Source of the DNA: Escherichia coli
GTDB lineage: Bacteria; Pseudomonadota; Gammaproteobacteria; Enterobacterales; Enterobacteriaceae
Length of the DNA: 64,000 bases
Assembly: GCF_003790525.1 (NCBI RefSeq)
Contig: NZ_CP033635.1
Direction: 5' to 3' (one strand)
Part shown: one piece after another, positions 10,165 to 43,404 of the stretch
Position numbering within the stretch: position 1 is the first letter of the stretch
Layout: each line of letters opens with the position of its first letter
The notes under the pieces: model-generated
The model's input: only the letters and a program-made list of their open reading frames with translations
The model's database searches: none
Told to the model about the DNA's origin: nothing
Made by a program: the position numbers and the translations under genes

Positions 10165-11117
10165 GATAACGGTTCATGTATCCCCTGAGCTGACAGTGTA
10201 CCGGGTATATTAAGCGTAACCGACAGGTTCTCCTTCATACCATATTAAATTTTTCCAGGTATTGCCGCTGCCTTATTTCGTCCCATACAGGAAAACTCGT
10301 CTGGGTTTCTGACAAATACGCGAAACTCACAGCCCCTCAATATCAACCACACGCTGTAAGCCGGTAATACCTGAAAATCAGCCTATTACCGCCCGCGCCT
10401 CCGTTACCGAACGCTCAGGTGACCAGACTGAAGCCCAGCACGCACTCGTAAAATTTGCGGTCAGTTCCGTCAGTCAGTGGGCAACCGCAGAGTTACGGGC
10501 TTCCAGGTCCACAGGAGTGAGTCTATAACGCGTGTGGGAAATCATTTTTTCTGGCGTTGACAGAACGCCTTACGGGCTGCTACTTACCCGGTGTCCCGCA
10601 ATACAGCCTTAGTGTTCCGTTATCGGGGATCCGGACGCACCGCAACAACCGGGGAAGTATTTCTGGTTAGAGCTGTGTCAAGAGGGATTTCTCAGCCCCT
10701 CACTCACCGGCTCAGTCTCAGGGCAGAAGCATTAATACACTCAGTTCATGTCTTATACAGGAATGGGCATAGGGGGAGCTGGCGTGTCACTGCTGATTTT
10801 ACGCATCAGCGTTCATGTATCTGCACTCTGATACAGAATGCTTCACAGCGCTCTGTTACCGGAGAGATTTACTCTCTTAGGTTATTCTGGCAAATCCTTT
10901 ACGTTACTCTCTGATGACTTCTTATATTTATAATACCAATCAGACAACCTTATCCCATCGGTGATATCAGTCTCCTGCTCGCCAGGAACGGGCTGACTCA
11001 CTGTAACCACCTCCGAAAACAACTCTGCAATTATCAGAACGCCTGCTTCTCTCCCTGTCCTCACGAAAACTATCCCCTCTTTATCGCGCGTGCGTGCGGA
11101 AGCATCTTTTCGCAACA

Positions 11118-16024: not shown

Positions 16025-17188
16025 GTGAGGTGTATTGTGGGAAAGGAACTGGATGATATCTGCACCAGCTGTCCGTATATCGATACTGTAAAACGGCACA
16101 AACAACAGCTCGGTGCCATAGAGGAATATACACAGTGGTTAAAAAAAGAACCACGGGCATCTTATTTTTTTCTGTTCCAGCTGTATACCCGCATTCACAA
16201 TACATTTTTCTCCCAAAAGCAACAACTCCCGTTCACTCCCGGTGGCACTCACTGCCCGGAACCTGATGTCACCCTTCGGGACTTAACGCTTTCCCCTGGC
16301 TACCACAGTGATTATGCCCCTCAACCCATTCCGGAGATGGACAGTTCTGCTGTTGTTCCCCCAACTAATGAAAACACCTCGCCTCCGGAAGATACTCCCG
16401 ACAACACTCCGGCCGGAGGCAATACCGGACAAGCGGAAAAGACCAGAAACGCAGGACTCACACCCATTCCTGAAAAACGTTCAGGAATGCCCCCGGAACA
16501 TCTGCGGTTTGCCACGGGGTTTCCATCGCAACCGAAGATTGCCGGTCCCAGAGAAAAGCCGATGCGCACCGTGCATCCGGATAAAATCTACCGTGAAATT
16601 ATATGGTTCTGCTCCAGTTACCTGCTGAAATCCGGACCAGAGGCTACGAGGACGATTATCAACTCAGTATTCTCTGAATGGGCCAGCATAAACAATGATT
16701 ACCCCTCCCCCTTTTCGTGGGTGGACAGCAGGGACAGTGAACAGTGTGACTGGTTATGGAACGCCATGCAGATCCGGTGTGTGGGAACCCCGCTGAATCC
16801 CCTTACCCCGGAGCAGAAATACTGGTTTGCCTGCGCCACGTTTGATAACTGGGAGGGCTGGAATGAGCAACAGGTACAGTTTTTACTGGAAAGTAATCCC
16901 AGACGGAACAGAGCGAAGTTTACGCAGGTCTCCTTCCAGGCCCCCAGGATTCAGCATAAAGCGATTCTTCTTGATGAGCTGAAAAGTGCCCGGGAGCAAC
17001 AAAAAAGGCGTGATGAACGTGCTGATGGTTCCGTCCCTCTGAAACTGTCCGGAAAAATCCACAAACAGCTTGAAAGTATTGCCCGAAGTCGTGGTGTCCT
17101 CCCAAAAAAACTGCTGAATGAAATGATTGAGCAGGCGTACCATGATTTGGTGGCAACCAGGCAGAACAGCCAAATCGATTCCAGATAA
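16025..17188 (+). CDS. Hypothetical protein with Pro/Thr-rich linker and possible C-terminal ribbon-helix-helix segment
   Basis: 387-aa ORF with GTG start (uncertain); low-complexity PPTNENTSPPEDTPDNTPAGG; C-terminal KLSGKIHKQLESIARSRGVLPKKLLNEMIEQAYHDL resembles an RHH DNA-binding motif. Confidence 0.4.
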   Translation: MRCIVGKELDDICTSCPYIDTVKRHKQQLGAIEEYTQWLKKEPRASYFFLFQLYTRIHNTFFSQKQQLPFTPGGTHCPEPDVTLRDLTLSPGYHSDYAPQPIPEMDSSAVVPPTNENTSPPEDTPDNTPAGGNTGQAEKTRNAGLTPIPEKRSGMPPEHLRFATGFPSQPKIAGPREKPMRTVHPDKIYREIIWFCSSYLLKSGPEATRTIINSVFSEWASINNDYPSPFSWVDSRDSEQCDWLWNAMQIRCVGTPLNPLTPEQKYWFACATFDNWEGWNEQQVQFLLESNPRRNRAKFTQVSFQAPRIQHKAILLDELKSAREQQKRRDERADGSVPLKLSGKIHKQLESIARSRGVLPKKLLNEMIEQAYHDLVATRQNSQIDSR

Positions 17189-17271: not shown

Positions 17272-18144
17272 ATGAATCCGTCTGATGCCATTGAGGCAAT
17301 TGAAAAACCGCTCTCCTCCCTGCCTTACTCACTTTCCCGTCACATCCTGGAACATCTGCGCAAACTCACCAGTCACGAACCCGTGCCTGGCATTATGGGT
17401 AAAAGCGGGGCCGGTAAATCCTCACTCTGTAATGCGCTGTTTCAGGGGGAGATCACCCCGGTCAGTGATGTTCACGCCGGCACCCGGGAAGTGCAGCGCT
17501 TCCGTCTGAATGGCCATGGTCACAGCATGGTTATCACTGACCTGCCCGGGGTGGGCGAGAGCCGGGACAGGGATGCAGAGTATGAAGCCCTGTACCGTGA
17601 CATTCTGCCCGAACTGGACCTGGTACTGTGGCTGATTAAAGCCGATGACCGTGCCCTGTCTGTGGATGAGTATTTCTGGCGACACATCCTGCACCGGGGA
17701 CATCAGCGGGTACTGTTTGTGGTGATGCAGGCCGATAAAACGGAGCCCTGCCATGAATGGGATATGGCCGGTATTCAGCCTTCTCCCGCACAGGCACAGA
17801 ACATTCGCGAAAAAACGGAGGCGGTATTCCGTCTGTTCCGGCCCGTACATCGGGTTGTTGCCGTATCGGCCCGCACCGGCTGGGAACTGGATACGCTGGT
17901 CAGTGCGCTCATGACAGCACTTCCCGACCATGCCGCCAGTCCCCTGATGACCCGCCTGCAGGACGAGCTGCGCACGGAATCTGTCCGCGCTCAGGCCCGT
18001 GAACAGTTTACCGGTGCGGTGGACCGGATATTTGACACGGCGGAGAGCGCCTGTATTGCCTCTGTTGCACGCACGGTTCTGCGTGCCGTCCGTGACTCGG
18101 TGGTCTCTGTTGCCCGCGCGGTATGGAACTGGATTTTCTTCTGA
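17272..18144 (+). CDS. YeeP/YfjP/YkfA-family prophage GTPase, apparently intact
   Basis: P-loop GKSGAGKSSLCNALF and G3 DLPGVGES; family recalled from CP4-44/CP4-57/CP4-6; start set at the ATG giving MNPSDAIE (ORF extends upstream to a GTG). Confidence 0.8.
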   Translation: MNPSDAIEAIEKPLSSLPYSLSRHILEHLRKLTSHEPVPGIMGKSGAGKSSLCNALFQGEITPVSDVHAGTREVQRFRLNGHGHSMVITDLPGVGESRDRDAEYEALYRDILPELDLVLWLIKADDRALSVDEYFWRHILHRGHQRVLFVVMQADKTEPCHEWDMAGIQPSPAQAQNIREKTEAVFRLFRPVHRVVAVSARTGWELDTLVSALMTALPDHAASPLMTRLQDELRTESVRAQAREQFTGAVDRIFDTAESACIASVARTVLRAVRDSVVSVARAVWNWIFF

Positions 18145-18261
18145 ACCCGGTGGTGATGTACCAGGCTGTTGTTACAGATTTTTAACTCCATGAAAACACT
18201 ATGCAAACGCAGCCATACCCGGGTTGTCCCCTTGCGTTGTGTTTCTCAAGTTAATAGAATG

Positions 18262-18305
18262 CATCGATCGTTACTATCATATCGATCGTTATAAACGATC
18301 GTTTG
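18262..18305. promoter_or_regulatory. Cluster of three CGATCG-core repeats upstream of the dynamin operon (putative operator)
   Basis: catcgatcgtta (18262-18273), atcgatcgtta (18281-18291), and the 12-bp perfect palindrome aaacgatcgttt (18294-18305); 57 bp upstream of the dynamin start. Confidence 0.3.
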
Positions 18306-18361
18306 TAGTAAATGACCTCCTCCGTGGTTGTCATGAAAATGCGTCTTAGGAAGGTTAAATA

Positions 18362-20758
18362 ATGCACGAAAAGAACATCGCCCTGCTTTGTGATGAAGCC
18401 GACCGACTTTTGCAACTGAACATTAATCTGCTCCGGCAAATGGTTGAGGAGCCAGATGTGTTATCTGACAGTAAGAACGAAAACAGACTGCTTTTTGATA
18501 AACAGAAAGCACTGAAAAGAATTGAGGAGCTGGAGGGCGAACAAATCAAAACCGCCCGCAGGGAGATGGTGCTGGCTGTTGTCGGCACGATGAAAGCAGG
18601 CAAATCAACCACCATCAACGCCATTGTGGGGCAGGAAATTCTGCCTAACCGTAACCGCCCCATGACCTCTGTACCGACGCTCATCCGCCACGTTCCCGGA
18701 AAAACTGAGCCGGTTCTCCATCTGGAACATATTCAGCCTGTCCGCAATTTATTAATCACACTGCAGGAAAAACTCGCCACCCCGGCAGGACAGCAGGTCG
18801 CACAGACCCTGCAGCAAACCGGGGATACCCGCGAACTGCTGGATATTCTGACGGATGATGGCTGGCTCAAAAATGAATACCACGGGGAGGAGGAAATCTT
18901 TACCGGACTGGCATCGTTAAACGATCTGGTTCGTCTTGCTGCGGCAATGGGGACTGAATTTCCTTTTGATGAATACGCAGAAGTGCAGAAACTGCCGGTG
19001 ATCGACGTGGAATTCAGCCATCTGGTGGGGATGGATGCATGCCAGGGAACACTCACACTGCTGGATACCCCCGGCCCTAATGAGGCCGGACAACCGCAGA
19101 TGGAAGTGATGATGCGGGATCAACTGCAGAAAGCCTCTGCGGTTCTGGCTGTGATGGATTACACCCAGATGAACTCAAAAGCGGATGAAGACGTCCGTAA
19201 AGAGCTTAATGCCATTGCTGACGTATCAGCCGGCCGCCTGTTTGTACTGGTCAATAAATTTGATGAGAAAGACCGCAATGGCGATGGGGCAGATGCCGTA
19301 CGCCAGAAAGTTCCGGCAATGCTGAACAGCGATGTGCTGCCCGCCTCCCGCGTTTATCCCGGATCCTCACGCCAGGCATACCTGGCTAACCGTGCGCTTC
19401 ATGAGTTACGGAAAAACGGAACCCTTCCTGTTGATGAAGCCTGGGTCGATGATTTTATCAGAGGTGCCTTCGGTTGCATGAAAAAAGAATACGTCTGTAA
19501 AGACAGTGAACTGGCAACTGAAGGGGCGACAGACCTGTGGGAAGGCTCACTTATCGATCAACTGATAACGGAAGTCATACAGAGCTCACATTCCAGAGCT
19601 GCGGCACTGGCGGTTGACTCTGCCGCCGCAAAACTGATGCAGAATGCAGAAAATATCAGTGAATACCTGTTGTTACGCCATCAGGGGCTACAGCAAAGCA
19701 TTCAGTCACTGCAGTCGCATATCACCAGCCTGCTTGCGGATATCCGGGAAATCGCGGACTGTCAGGAGCAGATGACCACTGATGTCAGAATGGCCATGGA
19801 GGAGATCGATACTAAAACCCGGGAATTACTGACGGGGGTCTGCACCTCACTGGAAGAGGAGCTGAATGACTATTTCAGAAGCGGTAAACGCAAAGAACAG
19901 CAAATGCTGGAGGAAGAAGACGCAGAACAACGAAGGTCTCAGTCCGGATTATGGGGGAAAATTTCTCAATGGTCCGGTATCAACAACCAGGGCCGGGAGG
20001 ATTACAGGAAACGAGATTTTGCCCCGGACAGCCCCGAAATAAAATTCAGTGATCGCAGGGAAGCCCTTGAACTGATGACGCAAATCGAATCGACCGTGAC
20101 CAGCCTGCACCGTGAGGCTGAAGCACAGTTCCGGCCTGAGCTGGAGAAAATCGTCAGCGGGATTGAAACAGGTTTTCGTGGCACGGCCCTGTACGCCACA
20201 GAAAACATTGCCGGTCGCATCAATGCCCGCCTGGAGGATGAGGGCTTTACCGTAAAAATCAGTTTTCCGGCAGTCAGCCAGTTACAGACCCGGCTCGCGG
20301 TAAAAATAAATCTGAGTGCGCTTATGGAGGAAAGAACGGAGACCGTCACCCGTCGCCGTCGGCAGAGTGGCGTATGGGGAACCGTTTGTCGATGGTTTGG
20401 CACCAGTGACCTGGGCTGGGAAAACTATGACGAGGATGTGAGTCGCAGCGTGATCAATATCAACAAGGTCAGAGAGGAAGTTATGTCACTGACCCGGGCA
20501 TATTTCGGGGAGCTGCAGGCATCCATTGAGCAGGATATTAACCAGCCCGTCCGCCAGGAAATCGATGCCTTTTTCTGCGCATTCAGGGAGAAAGTTGAAC
20601 AACTGCGTAACACGCTGATTCAGAGCTCTGAAGATCATAAACGCGATCAGCAGGCGCAGGAACGGCTTACCGGGCGACTTCAGGCATTAAATGAAAGGGT
20701 TCCTGAGCTCATTACTGACAGTAAGGCGCTGAGGGAAGAGCTGGAGACAATGCTGTGA
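18362..20758 (+). CDS. Bacterial dynamin-like GTPase, CrfC/YjdA-like
   Basis: 798 aa; G1 GTMKAGKST, G3 DTPGPNE, G4 NKFD; N-terminal block REMVLAVVGTMKAGKSTTINAIVGQEILPNRNRPMT matches E. coli CrfC as recalled; long helical C-terminal stalk; RBS aggaagg. Confidence 0.9.
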   Translation: MHEKNIALLCDEADRLLQLNINLLRQMVEEPDVLSDSKNENRLLFDKQKALKRIEELEGEQIKTARREMVLAVVGTMKAGKSTTINAIVGQEILPNRNRPMTSVPTLIRHVPGKTEPVLHLEHIQPVRNLLITLQEKLATPAGQQVAQTLQQTGDTRELLDILTDDGWLKNEYHGEEEIFTGLASLNDLVRLAAAMGTEFPFDEYAEVQKLPVIDVEFSHLVGMDACQGTLTLLDTPGPNEAGQPQMEVMMRDQLQKASAVLAVMDYTQMNSKADEDVRKELNAIADVSAGRLFVLVNKFDEKDRNGDGADAVRQKVPAMLNSDVLPASRVYPGSSRQAYLANRALHELRKNGTLPVDEAWVDDFIRGAFGCMKKEYVCKDSELATEGATDLWEGSLIDQLITEVIQSSHSRAAALAVDSAAAKLMQNAENISEYLLLRHQGLQQSIQSLQSHITSLLADIREIADCQEQMTTDVRMAMEEIDTKTRELLTGVCTSLEEELNDYFRSGKRKEQQMLEEEDAEQRRSQSGLWGKISQWSGINNQGREDYRKRDFAPDSPEIKFSDRREALELMTQIESTVTSLHREAEAQFRPELEKIVSGIETGFRGTALYATENIAGRINARLEDEGFTVKISFPAVSQLQTRLAVKINLSALMEERTETVTRRRRQSGVWGTVCRWFGTSDLGWENYDEDVSRSVININKVREEVMSLTRAYFGELQASIEQDINQPVRQEIDAFFCAFREKVEQLRNTLIQSSEDHKRDQQAQERLTGRLQALNERVPELITDSKALREELETML

Positions 20759-21660
20759 CTTCACCATTTATTCAACAAATTGCTGATAACCGGGTATGTC
20801 AGGTACTCACCTGTCTTCCTGAAAAATTTGTGGTTGATTTCGCAAACGGAATCGATGTTGCACAGGAGCATATCCGCACGGCCGGAGAGCGCACGTTCTT
20901 CCGGCGTTTAAAAGAGGGGCTGACCGGCGAAGGCGCTGCACGGCAGAATGCCATCAATGCGTCGCTTGCACAGGGCGTTGAGGCGTCCCTGCGCTGGCTG
21001 ACGGAGATGACAACGTCACTTGCCACCACAAACTACGCGATTACCCGGGTAAACGACAGGGTCAGTTCACTGGTCAGTGATACAGCCAGGCTGGCGCATT
21101 ATTCCGCAGATACGCGGGAGCAGTTACTCACCCTGGCCGATCAGGTTCACCATAAACTGAATCATCTTGAAGAAAAACTCCACCGTGTTGACCAGGTTCA
21201 GCGGGCGCAGTTACATCTTGAGCAGATATTCTCATGGTGGAGCGCCGGGCGATATGCGTCATTTTCCCCTGCCGGACGTTGTTATGTGGCACTTGAAGAG
21301 CTTCGCTGGGGCGCGTTTGGTGATGTGATACGTCAGAGCGAAACAGGCCAGGTTAACCAGCTACTGGATATTCTCAGACATAAAGCATTAACGCAGATGG
21401 CACAGGAGAGTGGCGGTAGTGCAACCGTGCGTCTGAACACTCTGGACTGGCTTGGTGGTCAGGGCCGGGAGCAGGCAGATAACGAGTGGCATGACGCGAT
21501 TAACTGGCTGGGAGACTGGTGCAGTGAAGAGCAGCATCCGGTGATCTGGTCAACCACGCAGGCTGCAGAACACTTACCGGTTCGCATGCCTCGCCTCTGC
21601 TCTGCAGAACGCCTCTCTGAAAGTATGGTCGATGAAATATTTCAGAAGGGGGCTGCATGA
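20755..21660 (+). CDS. Dynamin partner protein (YjcZ-like, by synteny with crfC-yjcZ)
   Basis: 301-aa ORF; GTG start overlaps the dynamin stop (GTGA); mostly helical; family assignment rests on position, not recalled sequence. Confidence 0.7.
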   Translation: MTSPFIQQIADNRVCQVLTCLPEKFVVDFANGIDVAQEHIRTAGERTFFRRLKEGLTGEGAARQNAINASLAQGVEASLRWLTEMTTSLATTNYAITRVNDRVSSLVSDTARLAHYSADTREQLLTLADQVHHKLNHLEEKLHRVDQVQRAQLHLEQIFSWWSAGRYASFSPAGRCYVALEELRWGAFGDVIRQSETGQVNQLLDILRHKALTQMAQESGGSATVRLNTLDWLGGQGREQADNEWHDAINWLGDWCSEEQHPVIWSTTQAAEHLPVRMPRLCSAERLSESMVDEIFQKGAA

Positions 21661-22727
21661 GTACAGAAATGAAAACGGGGCTGGTGCTGTCCGGTGGCGG
21701 GGCGGTGGGCGCTTATCAGGCGGGAGTGGTTAAGGCACTGGCAGAGTGTGGTACACAGATCAGCATGGTTTCAGGGGCCAGCATTGGCGCATTCAATGGT
21801 GCCATTATCGCGGCCTCTACCGATCTGTCAGAAGCTGCCGTACGCCTGGAGGCGCTCTGGGATCATCTGGGGAATAATCAGGTGCTGTCGGTAAACAGAT
21901 TGGTTTACTTTTCATTGCTGAAAAAATTGTTCCAGGCAATGAACCTCTGCCAGATCCCCGGACGTGCAGGAGCACTGCTTACGACGCTTCTTCGCCATAT
22001 ATCGACAATCAACGGGTTTGACAATCTGATGGCTCAGCCGTTGTTGTCAGATGAGCCCCTGACAGCGCTGATGGATCATTATCTTGATACTGATGCTCTG
22101 GCAGACGGGCTACCGCTGTATGTGTCGCTGTACCCCACAGAAGGGGGCATGCAGGATATTATTGACTGCATTCGTGCTGAACTGGGTGTCGGAACCACGA
22201 AAAACGCCGTTTTTCAGCATATCCAGAGCCTGCCCCGCGGACAGCAGAAAGAGGCTCTGCTTGCGTCAGCCGCGCTGCCCCTGCTGTTCCGTCCCCGTGA
22301 GGTTCAGGGGACAATGTTCGGTGATGGTGGTATGGGAGGATGGCGAAATATGCAGGGAAATACCCCTGTGACGCCTCTGGTCGATGCCGGATGCAATATG
22401 GTGATTGTGACGCATCTGAGTGACGGTTCTTTATGGGATCGCCAGGCTTTTCCGGACACCACAATCCTTGAGATCCGTCCCCGGAAAAGGCTGAAATATG
22501 CAGGTGATGGTGGCAACAGCGGCGGTCTGCTCAGTTTTACATCGGCACATACCGACGCCTGGCGTCAGCAGGGCTATGAAGACACGATGCTGGCGATGGA
22601 GCATATCCGGAAACCGCTGGCAGCACGTCAGGCACTGACCCGGTCAGAGGCGGTATTGCAGAAAAGCCTGGATATAACGGAAGAGGCAGATTTGGCACTG
22701 AGAAACGCGATGGCCCGGATTAAATAA
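21657..22727 (+). CDS. Patatin-like phospholipase
   Basis: 356 aa; Gly-rich oxyanion SGGGAVGAYQAG, lipase GxSxG as GASIG, catalytic Asp in FGDGGM; ATG overlaps the upstream stop (ATGA). Confidence 0.85.
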   Translation: MSTEMKTGLVLSGGGAVGAYQAGVVKALAECGTQISMVSGASIGAFNGAIIAASTDLSEAAVRLEALWDHLGNNQVLSVNRLVYFSLLKKLFQAMNLCQIPGRAGALLTTLLRHISTINGFDNLMAQPLLSDEPLTALMDHYLDTDALADGLPLYVSLYPTEGGMQDIIDCIRAELGVGTTKNAVFQHIQSLPRGQQKEALLASAALPLLFRPREVQGTMFGDGGMGGWRNMQGNTPVTPLVDAGCNMVIVTHLSDGSLWDRQAFPDTTILEIRPRKRLKYAGDGGNSGGLLSFTSAHTDAWRQQGYEDTMLAMEHIRKPLAARQALTRSEAVLQKSLDITEEADLALRNAMARIK

Positions 22728-23561: not shown

Positions 23562-23972
23562 ATGAAAACTTTTATCAAAACTTTACTCGTTGCTGTAACT
23601 ATTCTGTTCTCTGTCTTCGCTACTGCGAAACAAGTAAAACTGCCAAATAACATCAAATACGTTAATACTACAGAAGCGTTTTCCTGTACCGAAATTGACG
23701 GTATGAATTGCCAGACAAAGAATCAGTTCAACTATAAAGATAACAGCTATGTTTTCGTGCTTGAGCGTGGTGGTGCCTGGTGCTACGACTACACTGTCTC
23801 GGTAGTTAACCTGAAAACCGGGAAAGCACAAATGATTGAATACGGGGACAATCAACTGTGCTCAGGTAGCAACAAACCGTTCTTCGAAATCAAAAATGGC
23901 GTACCGACGGTAGGAGTCATCGACACATCCGGAAAACCTGTCGTTGTAGCCCAGGACAAACTTAAAATCTAA
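23562..23972 (+). CDS. Small secreted Cys-containing protein, hypothetical
   Basis: 136 aa; signal peptide ending ATA-KQ; four Cys; strong aaggag RBS; 15 bp after the Ivy-like gene. Confidence 0.6.
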   Translation: MKTFIKTLLVAVTILFSVFATAKQVKLPNNIKYVNTTEAFSCTEIDGMNCQTKNQFNYKDNSYVFVLERGGAWCYDYTVSVVNLKTGKAQMIEYGDNQLCSGSNKPFFEIKNGVPTVGVIDTSGKPVVVAQDKLKI

Positions 23973-42338: not shown

Positions 42339-43404
42339 TGAGTCAGAAGTATCTTTTTATCGATCGCGATGGAACCCTGATTAGCGAACCGCCGAGTGAT
42401 TTTCAGGTGGACCGTTTTGACAAACTCGCCTTTGAACCGGGCGTGATCCCGGAACTGCTGAAGCTGCAAAAAGCGGGCTACAAACTGGTGATGATCACTA
42501 ATCAGGATGGTCTGGGAACACAAAGTTTCCCGCAGGCGGATTTTGATGGACCGCACAACCTGATGATGCAGATCTTCACCTCGCAAGGCGTGCAGTTTGA
42601 TGAAGTGCTGATTTGTCCGCACCTGCCCGCAGATGAGTGCGACTGCCGTAAACCGAAAGTAAAACTGGTGGAGCGTTATCTCGCTGAGCAAGCGATGGAT
42701 CGTGCCAACAGTTATGTGATTGGCGATCGCGCGACCGATATTCAACTGGCGGAAAACATGGGTATTAATGGTTTACGCTACGACCGCGAAACCCTGAACT
42801 GGCCGATGATTGGCGAGCAACTCACTAAACGAGACCGTTACGCCCACGTAGTGCGCAACACCAAAGAGACGCAAATTGACGTCCAGGTGTGGCTGGATCG
42901 TGAAGGTGGCAGCAAGATTAACACCGGCGTTGGCTTCTTTGATCACATGCTGGATCAGATCGCCACCCACGGCGGTTTCCGCATGGAAATCAACGTCAAA
43001 GGCGACCTCTATATCGACGATCACCACACCGTCGAAGATACCGGCCTGGCGCTGGGCGAAGCGTTAAAAATTGCCCTCGGCGATAAACGCGGTATTTGTC
43101 GCTTTGGTTTTGTGCTGCCGATGGACGAATGCCTTGCCCGCTGCGCGCTGGATATCTCTGGTCGCCCGCACCTGGAATATAAAGCCGAATTTACCTACCA
43201 GCGCGTGGGCGATCTCAGCACTGAAATGATCGAGCACTTCTTCCGTTCGCTCTCTTACACTATGGGCGTGACGCTACACCTGAAAACCAAAGGTAAAAAC
43301 GATCATCACCGTGTAGAGAGCCTGTTCAAAGCCTTTGGTCGCACCCTGCGCCAGGCCATCCGCGTGGAAGGCGACACCCTGCCCTCGTCAAAAGGAGTGC
43401 TGTA

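Follow-up and report, generated by a model that had tools for sequence, protein, structure and literature searches.

The locus studied here raises a simple question. Three repeats with the core CGATCG lie within 44 bp of each other upstream of an operon that starts with the gene of a dynamin-like GTPase, and one would like to know which factor recognizes them and what this factor does to the operon. A reading of the sequence alone (the sequence-only reading) had proposed sites for a dimeric regulator that might keep the operon repressed, with either an upstream ORF or a host factor as the cognate protein. All positions refer to the window, i.e., the whole 64-kb stretch of Escherichia coli DNA that was analyzed.

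Repeat cluster and chance expectation

The three repeats and the perfect palindrome were confirmed in the sequence, and the end of the palindrome is separated by 56 nt from the ATG of the dynamin gene (18362). The CGATCG cores start at 18265, 18283, and 18296 in the following elements:

18262-18273, first repeat, catcgatcgtta
18281-18291, second repeat, atcgatcgtta
18294-18305, perfect 12-bp palindrome, aaacgatcgttt

A repeat search returned the same elements as three direct repeats of 11 nt each, located at 18263, 18281, and 18294 with spacings of 18 and 13. It also detected perfect 8-bp inverted arms in the cluster, CGATCGTT and AACGATCG.

The hexamer CGATCG is found 17 times in the 64-kb window with about 15 occurrences expected, and the count of GATC is slightly below expectation. 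The three hexamers within 36 bp form the sole triple in the window and also contribute the sole pairs within 35 bp. Such a triple was seen in one of 300 first-order Markov simulations (Poisson expectation about 0.0007). Triples of bare GATC sites, however, are common by chance (221 of 300 simulations). A second group of three GATC within 35 bp, the only other one in the window, lies in a hisB-like coding sequence at 42941-42958 and can be taken as a chance control. The significance of the cluster therefore derives from the extended repeat and its context and not from the clustering of GATC sites alone.

Genomic context

The window is part of the E. coli chromosome and contains a CP4-44-type island adjoining yeeA, sbmC, and dacD. 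The gene names at the locus were taken from the RefSeq annotation of a 100%-identical genome (strain FDAARGOS_497). In this annotation the order is hypothetical protein, YeeP-like GTPase, the repeats, dynamin family protein, RdcB-family protein, patatin-like phospholipase, and two hypothetical proteins, followed further downstream by DUF932, an antirestriction protein, yeeS, yeeT, and cbeA/cbtA. Small HTH genes of the island are annotated further upstream of the repeats. Two upstream genes are of importance for the following:

16025-17188, ORF of 387 aa upstream of yeeP, without any Pfam or NCBIfam match at any threshold
17272-18144, plus strand, yeeP-like GTPase gene (RefSeq 'GTPase family protein'), with its 3′ end as the conserved upstream anchor of the proposed switch module

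A 340-aa homologue of the 387-aa ORF in strain fS149a carries the RefSeq name 'transcriptional regulator'. In a K-12-type strain yeeP is truncated, lies beside IS2, and is followed by agn43. An Rfam search of the region 17600-19000 gave no match.

Homology to the agn43 regulatory region

The gene agn43 is controlled by three GATC sites within one OxyR site. OxyR acts as repressor and Dam methylation abolishes its binding, so that a dam mutation locks the gene OFF, whereas it is ON in oxyR mutants; both states are inherited with switching at approximately 10^-2 to 10^-3 per generation, and Dam and OxyR compete for the hemimethylated DNA after replication (PMC2909390, PMC3764049, PMC4872104, PMC13337833). 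This role of OxyR is independent of its oxidation state (PMC4856963).

In a comparison of two spacers, yeeP-dynamin from the window and yeeP-agn43 from the K-12-type strain, each of the three GATC sites in the window aligned with its counterpart among the three of agn43, and upstream of them CTTG and the block TAATAGAAT could be aligned as well, with flanks around the aligned GATC sites that are only about 70% identical. A six-way alignment of BLAST-picked upstream regions (three dynamin-type and three Ag43/Cah-type) has a mean identity of 71% and contains the invariant blocks CTTG ... TAATAGAAT ... CGATC ... TATCGATCGTT ... CGATC. According to local alignments the homology to the agn43/cah upstream regions extends from the yeeP stop codon to 18301-18342, depending on the allele, and the sequence beyond, including the Shine-Dalgarno sequence, is specific to the dynamin junction. 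The distance from GATC-I to GATC-II is 18 bp in the window versus 19 bp in K-12-type agn43; the closest agn43 allele, that of strain 673, has the same 18-bp spacing as the window. Judged from these alignments the three repeats are almost certainly a homologous copy of the Dam/OxyR switch of agn43. The core of the hexamer is GATC, the target of Dam methylation: in variants CGATCG decays to CGATCA or TGATCG and the GATC is retained.

Proposed promoter, Dam sites, and OxyR site

The following elements were assigned to the spacer (elements without orientation are given as unstranded):

18232-18237, plus strand, inferred -35 hexamer TTGCGT, 17-bp spacer to the -10 hexamer; its CTTG is invariant in the dynamin-type and agn43/cah-type sequences, and it aligns with TTGTCC of the K-12-type
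18255-18260, plus strand, inferred -10 hexamer TAGAAT; block TAATAGAAT invariant in 6/6 sequences of the six-way alignment and in 8/8 window-type sequences
18266-18269, unstranded, GATC-I, Dam target, aligned with GATC-I of K-12-type agn43
18284-18287, unstranded, GATC-II, Dam target in the third OxyR recognition element; block TATCGATCGTT invariant in the six-way alignment
18297-18300, unstranded, GATC-III, Dam target in the fourth OxyR recognition element and centre of the palindrome; CGATC invariant in both multiple alignments
18263-18299, unstranded, predicted OxyR tetramer-binding site, ATCGATCGTTACTAT-n7-ATCGTTATAAACGAT compared with the consensus ATAGnTnnnAnCTAT-n7-ATAGnTnnnAnCTAT, 16 of 20 specified positions
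18254-18268, unstranded, extra OxyR half-site-like 15-mer (8/10) overlapping the -10 hexamer
18266-18361, plus strand, predicted 5′ UTR of 96 nt with the GATC-II/III hairpin, a possible anti-SD/SD hairpin (18313-18357), and the Shine-Dalgarno sequence AGGAAGG (18348-18354)

A generic promoter scan skipped the inferred promoter (8/12 positions) and proposed TTAATA-18-TATCAT instead. Wallecha et al. reportedly found in 2002 that agn43 transcription starts at the G of GATC-I, that OxyR(C199S) protects the region from -16 to +42, that a 101-nt fragment with promoter and OxyR site is enough for phase variation, and that methylation enhances agn43 transcription in vitro. When these agn43 coordinates are mapped on the window, transcription is predicted to start at the G of GATC-I (18266) and the footprint would cover about 18250-18307, leaving the 96-nt 5′ UTR listed above. 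In the K-12-type strain GATC-I is located 222 bp upstream of the agn43 ATG, and a start at this site is consistent with the start mapped by 5′ RACE in EC958, 228 bp upstream of the agn43 ATG (PMC4807369).

The dynamin-type 5′ UTR lacks the long leader of agn43, and with it the terminator-like hairpin. In the predicted fold of this UTR CCUCCUCC (18316-18323) pairs with the Shine-Dalgarno sequence AGGAAGG, and this weak hairpin (z = -1.8 versus shuffled sequences) could add translational damping. In the leaders of agn43 and cah (L001 3800-3860 and L012 975-1020) a GC-rich hairpin with a T-run (CCGGTA...TACCGGCTTTTTTATT) is found just before the ribosome-binding site.

The predicted OxyR site at 18263-18299 is the single best match to the OxyR consensus in the 64-kb window (runner-up 14), and a score of at least 16 was reached in four of 300 simulated windows. 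For comparison, the experimentally characterized site of K-12-type agn43 scores 14/20, the allele of strain 673 17/20, and the dynamin-type copy of strain fS149a 15/20. The match begins 3 bp past the conserved TAGAAT of the promoter inferred by homology, and all three GATC sites are situated within it or at its edge. As to half-sites, 30 positions of the window score at least 8/10, three of them inside 18254-18299. In three of the four recognition elements the ATAG/CTAT of the consensus is replaced by ATCG/CGAT, and each of these three contains the adenine of a GATC, i.e., the Dam target, which gives a direct reason why N6-methylation should exclude OxyR. The repeat units described by the sequence-only reading thus appear to be OxyR recognition elements fused to Dam sites. 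Its proposal of a symmetric regulator site holds insofar as the cluster is very probably the operator of a symmetric, oligomeric repressor acting on the operon promoter; OxyR is, however, a tetramer (a dimer of dimers) and not a dimer. The suggestion that the cognate factor is supplied by the host agrees with the homology to agn43 and with the consensus match, both of which point to OxyR.

Proposed mechanism

Dam and OxyR are encoded by core genes of E. coli. If the 44-bp cluster serves as operator in an epigenetic phase-variation switch of the agn43 type, a sigma-70 promoter (TTGCGT/TAGAAT) would fire at or near 18266, the G of the first GATC. With unmethylated GATC sites OxyR would bind and block transcription of the dynamin/RdcB-like/patatin operon (OFF). 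The bound OxyR would shield the three GATC sites from Dam, so that the OFF state would reproduce itself. Should Dam methylate the sites before OxyR binds, while the newly replicated DNA is still hemimethylated, OxyR would be excluded and the operon transcribed (ON), a state that would likewise perpetuate itself. A clonal population would then be a mixture of ON and OFF cells with switching at low frequency. The repression of the operon assumed by the sequence-only reading would be retained in the form of an OxyR-type repressor site; what is to be expected is heritable ON/OFF switching and not plain repression.

We infer that the copy probably works as a Dam/OxyR phase switch for the dynamin operon. 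The mechanism is borrowed from agn43; the homology, the OxyR consensus match, the anatomy of the site, and the distribution described below are established by the present analysis. With the 1-bp difference in spacing and the replaced leader the switching rates or even the bistability could differ from those of agn43. There is precedent for genes other than agn43 under this kind of control, as the agn43 promoter also drives yeeR and irmA, and both are subject to repression by OxyR (PMC4807369).

Distribution and variation

The occurrence of the switch was counted in 5426 complete E. coli genomes:

Window-type switch (106 bp, at least 80% covered), 1984/5426 genomes
Switch together with the first 340 bp of the dynamin gene, 1978/5426 genomes
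Triad (dynamin, RdcB-like, and patatin genes) directly behind an Ag43/Cah gene carrying the switch (O157:H7 type), 635/5426 genomes
Any switch-family sequence, 9438 places in 4373/5426 genomes

Comparison of the first two numbers implies that essentially all window-type switches are joined to the dynamin gene. This arrangement is present in about 36% of the complete E. coli genomes, and its carriers include ST131, O103, O145, and O55:H7 strains. YeeP-like DNA occurs at 10409 places in 4549 of the 5426 genomes, and a switch lies downstream of nearly every yeeP copy. Loss of island genes upstream or truncation of yeeP leaves the switch in its position, and islands without the 387-aa ORF and with a shortened yeeP still have both switch and triad. 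The 387-aa ORF is missing from K-12-type and ST131-type (ST131/EC9682-type) islands, which keep the switch; together with the lack of any domain match this speaks against the suggestion of the sequence-only reading that this ORF, described there as RHH-containing, is the cognate regulator.

In O157:H7 EDL933 (L012 775-8354) the order is yeeP, switch, cah, dynamin, RdcB, and patatin. Since the 110-bp cah-dynamin spacer of this type contains no promoter-like or terminator-like site in our scans, the triad may be cotranscribed there with cah under one switch, as are yeeR and irmA with agn43 in UPEC.

Genomes and metagenomes were also searched with the pattern TAATAGAAT-N4-CGATC-N{11,13}-TATCGATCGTT-N5-CGATC, which covers the agn43/cah type only (the corresponding gap of the window type is 10 nt), so window-type copies were counted in the E. 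coli genome collection instead. A yeeP-like gene lies upstream in all 127 pattern matches (120 metagenome contigs and other loci). In the 120 metagenome contigs the downstream gene belongs to the Ag43 family, sometimes followed by the triad, or, in Citrobacter, encodes a protein of 154 aa. In the Citrobacter loci (L007 4551-5158, C. braakii; L008 928-1337, C. amalonaticus; L101) yeeP and the switch precede the gene of this signal-peptide protein, for which we found no Pfam, NCBIfam, or PDB match and which represents a third kind of cargo behind the switch. An IMG/VR contig (L133 766-2065), in which a DUF968 gene and the gene of a lambdoid Q antiterminator come directly after a cah-type switch, at first seemed to carry a new cargo; it was set aside, its junction being present in none of the 5426 genomes (0/5426) and the assembly probably chimeric. 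A contig labeled as a Collinsella MAG (L009) consists of E. coli island DNA with the 3′ end of yeeP, a cah-type switch with leader, and small island genes, but lacks an Ag43 gene; probably it is a contaminant from binning and represents an island variant with Ag43 deleted.

The DNA upstream of triad homologues with 58-67% identity (on IncF plasmids and one metagenome contig) consists of IS elements or is unrelated, and neither a GATC cluster nor the repeat motif was detected in it. In two of these loci (L010 and L011, IncF plasmids of E. coli, Klebsiella, and Enterobacter) the whole triad, 58% identical, is flanked by IS5, IS1, and IS30 and is free of the switch. The expectation that the motif should recur upstream of homologous operons was therefore borne out only in part: it is missing at the distant triads and kept in about 2000 E. 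coli genomes as well as before agn43 and cah, which means that the switch belongs to the slot downstream of yeeP and not to the triad.

Even in the eight most divergent window-type copies of the sample the spacer retains 97% identity. Substitutions within the switch fall between the -10 hexamer and GATC-I and beside the GATC sites (CGATCG to CGATCA, TCGATC to TTGATC), and one of the eight strains has a 2-bp insertion after GATC-III. The GATC tetranucleotides are intact in all eight copies. As the copies are so similar, the pattern hints only weakly at a constraint on GATC rather than on the hexamer.

The operon behind the proposed switch

Three genes lie immediately downstream of the switch:

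18362-20758, plus strand, dynamin-like GTPase of 798 aa, paralogue of CrfC/YjdA (RdcA), first gene under the proposed switch; Pfam PF00350 and PF01926, P-loop GTMKAGKST intact
20755-21660, plus strand, RdcB/YjcZ-family protein (RefSeq annotation; PF13990 YjcZ on a homologue), start overlapping the dynamin stop
21657-22727, plus strand, patatin-like phospholipase with intact GGGxxG, GxSxG (GASIG), and DGG motifs, start overlapping the preceding stop

At both junctions the adjoining genes overlap by 4 bp, an arrangement suggestive of a single operon. At the protein level the dynamin-like protein is about 34% identical to CrfC, and it reaches 556 bits with the NCBIfam CrfC model (cut-off 1146); it is therefore a paralogue of CrfC and not an equivalog. 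Its top 120 homologues in a word-indexed protein search are all at least 93% identical and come from E. coli wherever the organism is named, so that no divergent contexts were obtained from them; the context of P0124 (L135) is chimeric or truncated. The patatin-like protein gave weak NCBIfam and PADLOC phospholipase matches. PADLOC did not list the triad among the known defence systems. An assignment to the Eleos/'Dynamins' (LeoA-LeoBC) system was rejected, as PADLOC finds no LeoA and its LeoBC match to the dynamin-like protein is only of the size of a P-loop (residues 29-89, E = 8.6e-5). Two proteins were also considered as IrmA, that of the 136-aa ORF downstream of the triad (23562-23972) and the Citrobacter 154-aa protein; neither has a PDB sequence match, and the idea was dropped.

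Alternative explanations

Could OxyR bind to the cluster and yet not bring about heritable phase variation? Repression might be simple or dependent on conditions, or the site might be a part-decayed relic of agn43 left behind when the triad replaced this gene. The homology to agn43 fades 0-40 bp past GATC-III, the agn43 leader is gone, the GATC spacing differs by 1 bp, the 97% identity within the type is little evidence of selection, and phage Mu mom is a Dam/OxyR-controlled gene that is not known to be phase-variable (PMC2909390). Nevertheless we consider this explanation unlikely. All conserved blocks of the 101-nt agn43 segment that is reported to suffice for switching are present here, the OxyR consensus match is better than that of K-12-type agn43, and the agn43 allele of strain 673 shares the 18-bp spacing. 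Still less can be said for a dedicated dimeric regulator, encoded in the island or by the host, which would repress through the CGATCG palindromes independently of Dam and OxyR. The direct and inverted repeats with their dyad symmetry and the small HTH genes further upstream would suit such a protein, and we nevertheless regard it as very improbable: the 387-aa ORF has no recognizable DNA-binding domain, islands of the K-12 and ST131/EC9682 types do without this ORF and keep the switch, GATC is conserved and the hexamer CGATCG is not, the OxyR half-sites account fully for the repeats, and phase variation of agn43 has been described as requiring both Dam and OxyR.

An effect of methylation without OxyR, either by recruitment of SeqA to hemimethylated GATC sites or by a direct influence of methylation on promoter strength, would profit from the arrangement of the three GATC sites roughly on one helical face (31 bp from GATC-I to GATC-III) and from the in vitro stimulation of agn43 transcription by methylation attributed to Wallecha et al. 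2002. SeqA is moreover known to influence the switching of agn43 and opvAB (PMC13337833, PMC4856963). Such an effect would leave aside that the OxyR consensus match at this site is the best of the window, and to us it seems even more remote than the dedicated regulator. The least credible explanation is that the cluster has no regulatory role at all and is a chance cluster or, in the form of the hairpin CGATCGTT-ATA-AACGATCG, the terminator of yeeP. A terminator scan does flag 18283-18301 followed by TTTGTAGT, and GATC triples alone are frequent by chance; the T-run is poor, however, the hairpin itself arises from the palindromic OxyR half-site, the CGATCG triple was obtained in just one of 300 simulations, and there is block-wise homology to an experimentally characterized switch. 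An agn43-type Dam/OxyR switch thus remains our preferred reading.

Implications

Our literature search revealed no report of a switch directly before the dynamin/RdcB-like/patatin operon or of this operon as phase-variable, and no paper that combines GATC, dynamin, OxyR, and E. coli. Searches for yeeP with dynamin, for OxyR with patatin, and for GATC with dynamin and Dam retrieved only irrelevant literature, and no unmethylated GATC sites are listed in a methylome paper on ST131 or in its supplements. Elements of this kind are well known, and it is this cargo behind an agn43-type switch that is unreported in the literature searched.

If the switch works as at agn43, a widespread uncharacterized operon would be expressed in just a fraction of the cells. 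A possible oversight of the operon in bulk transcriptomics and mutant screens would thereby be explained, and its phenotypes would depend on the colony picked, a pitfall already documented for Ag43. Mutants in oxyR or dam or point mutants of the GATC sites would then offer simple ON/OFF locks for studying the function of the triad. The findings also suggest that the Dam/OxyR switch is a modular cassette that is reused for varied cargo in these islands, which extends the known range of epigenetic phase variation in E. coli to cargo other than surface adhesins.

More speculatively, and with considerable doubt on our part, the promoter/OxyR/GATC segment of agn43 could be viewed as a portable epigenetic cassette, fixed behind yeeP in islands of the CP4-44 family, whose cargo is exchangeable (Ag43/Cah, yeeR-irmA, the small secreted Citrobacter protein, and the triad in about 36% of E. 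coli), and the triad as a costly or self-damaging module directed at the membrane, for example an abortive-infection/anti-phage or membrane-remodelling system, that is tolerated only owing to bistable expression in a subpopulation. Were this true, it would be the first phase-variable system of such a kind under Dam/OxyR control.

Comparison with known systems

A switch of the pap type, with two GATC sites about 102 bp apart in two sets of Lrp sites and a PapI-like coregulator (PMC2909390), was considered and rejected: the GATC sites of the window are spaced by 18 and 13 bp and no papI- or papB-like gene is annotated nearby. The gtr operon (phage P22, Salmonella) and opvAB resemble the window in that OxyR and Dam act together, GATC sites are located in OxyR half-sites, and methylation patterns are heritable; they differ in that there are three to four half-sites, that four GATC sites form two pairs upstream of the promoter, and that OxyR takes up alternative positions and can act as an activator (PMC2909390, PMC4856963). 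With a single repressor site and only three GATC sites, downstream of the -10 hexamer, the window does not belong to the gtr/opvAB type. The OxyR site of phage Mu mom lies upstream of the promoter, unlike that of the window. In common with the proposed switch, OxyR represses mom unless the GATC sites within its binding site are methylated (PMC2909390).

With respect to the cargo the closest counterpart is the pair RdcA (YjdA/CrfC) and RdcB (YjcZ) of E. coli K-12, in which a dynamin-like GTPase is likewise followed by a YjcZ-family protein and the genes are translationally coupled. The triad of the window has in addition a patatin phospholipase, is island-borne, and stands under the proposed epigenetic switch, and its dynamin scores below the family cut-off.

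As a regulatory element the cluster is most similar to the upstream regions of agn43 (flu) and of cah of O157:H7, which occupy the same slot right after yeeP in CP4-44-type islands, are homologous in sequence, and have equal promoter blocks as well as three GATC sites in matching register; in each, a single OxyR tetramer site follows directly on the -10 hexamer. The cargo of agn43/cah is an autotransporter adhesin, whereas that of the window is an operon for a cytoplasmic or membrane-associated dynamin-like GTPase, an RdcB-like protein, and a patatin. The 5′ UTR is about 96 nt in the window and about 222-250 nt in agn43/cah, only the latter having a terminator-like leader hairpin, and the OxyR consensus match is 16/20 compared with 14/20 in K-12-type agn43. 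In the agn43-yeeR-irmA arrangement of UPEC nonadhesin genes are likewise under the OxyR-repressed agn43 promoter (PMC4807369). There the extra genes ride behind agn43, whereas the triad of the window is fused directly to the switch; the true analogue of agn43-yeeR-irmA is the switch-cah-triad arrangement of the EDL933 type.
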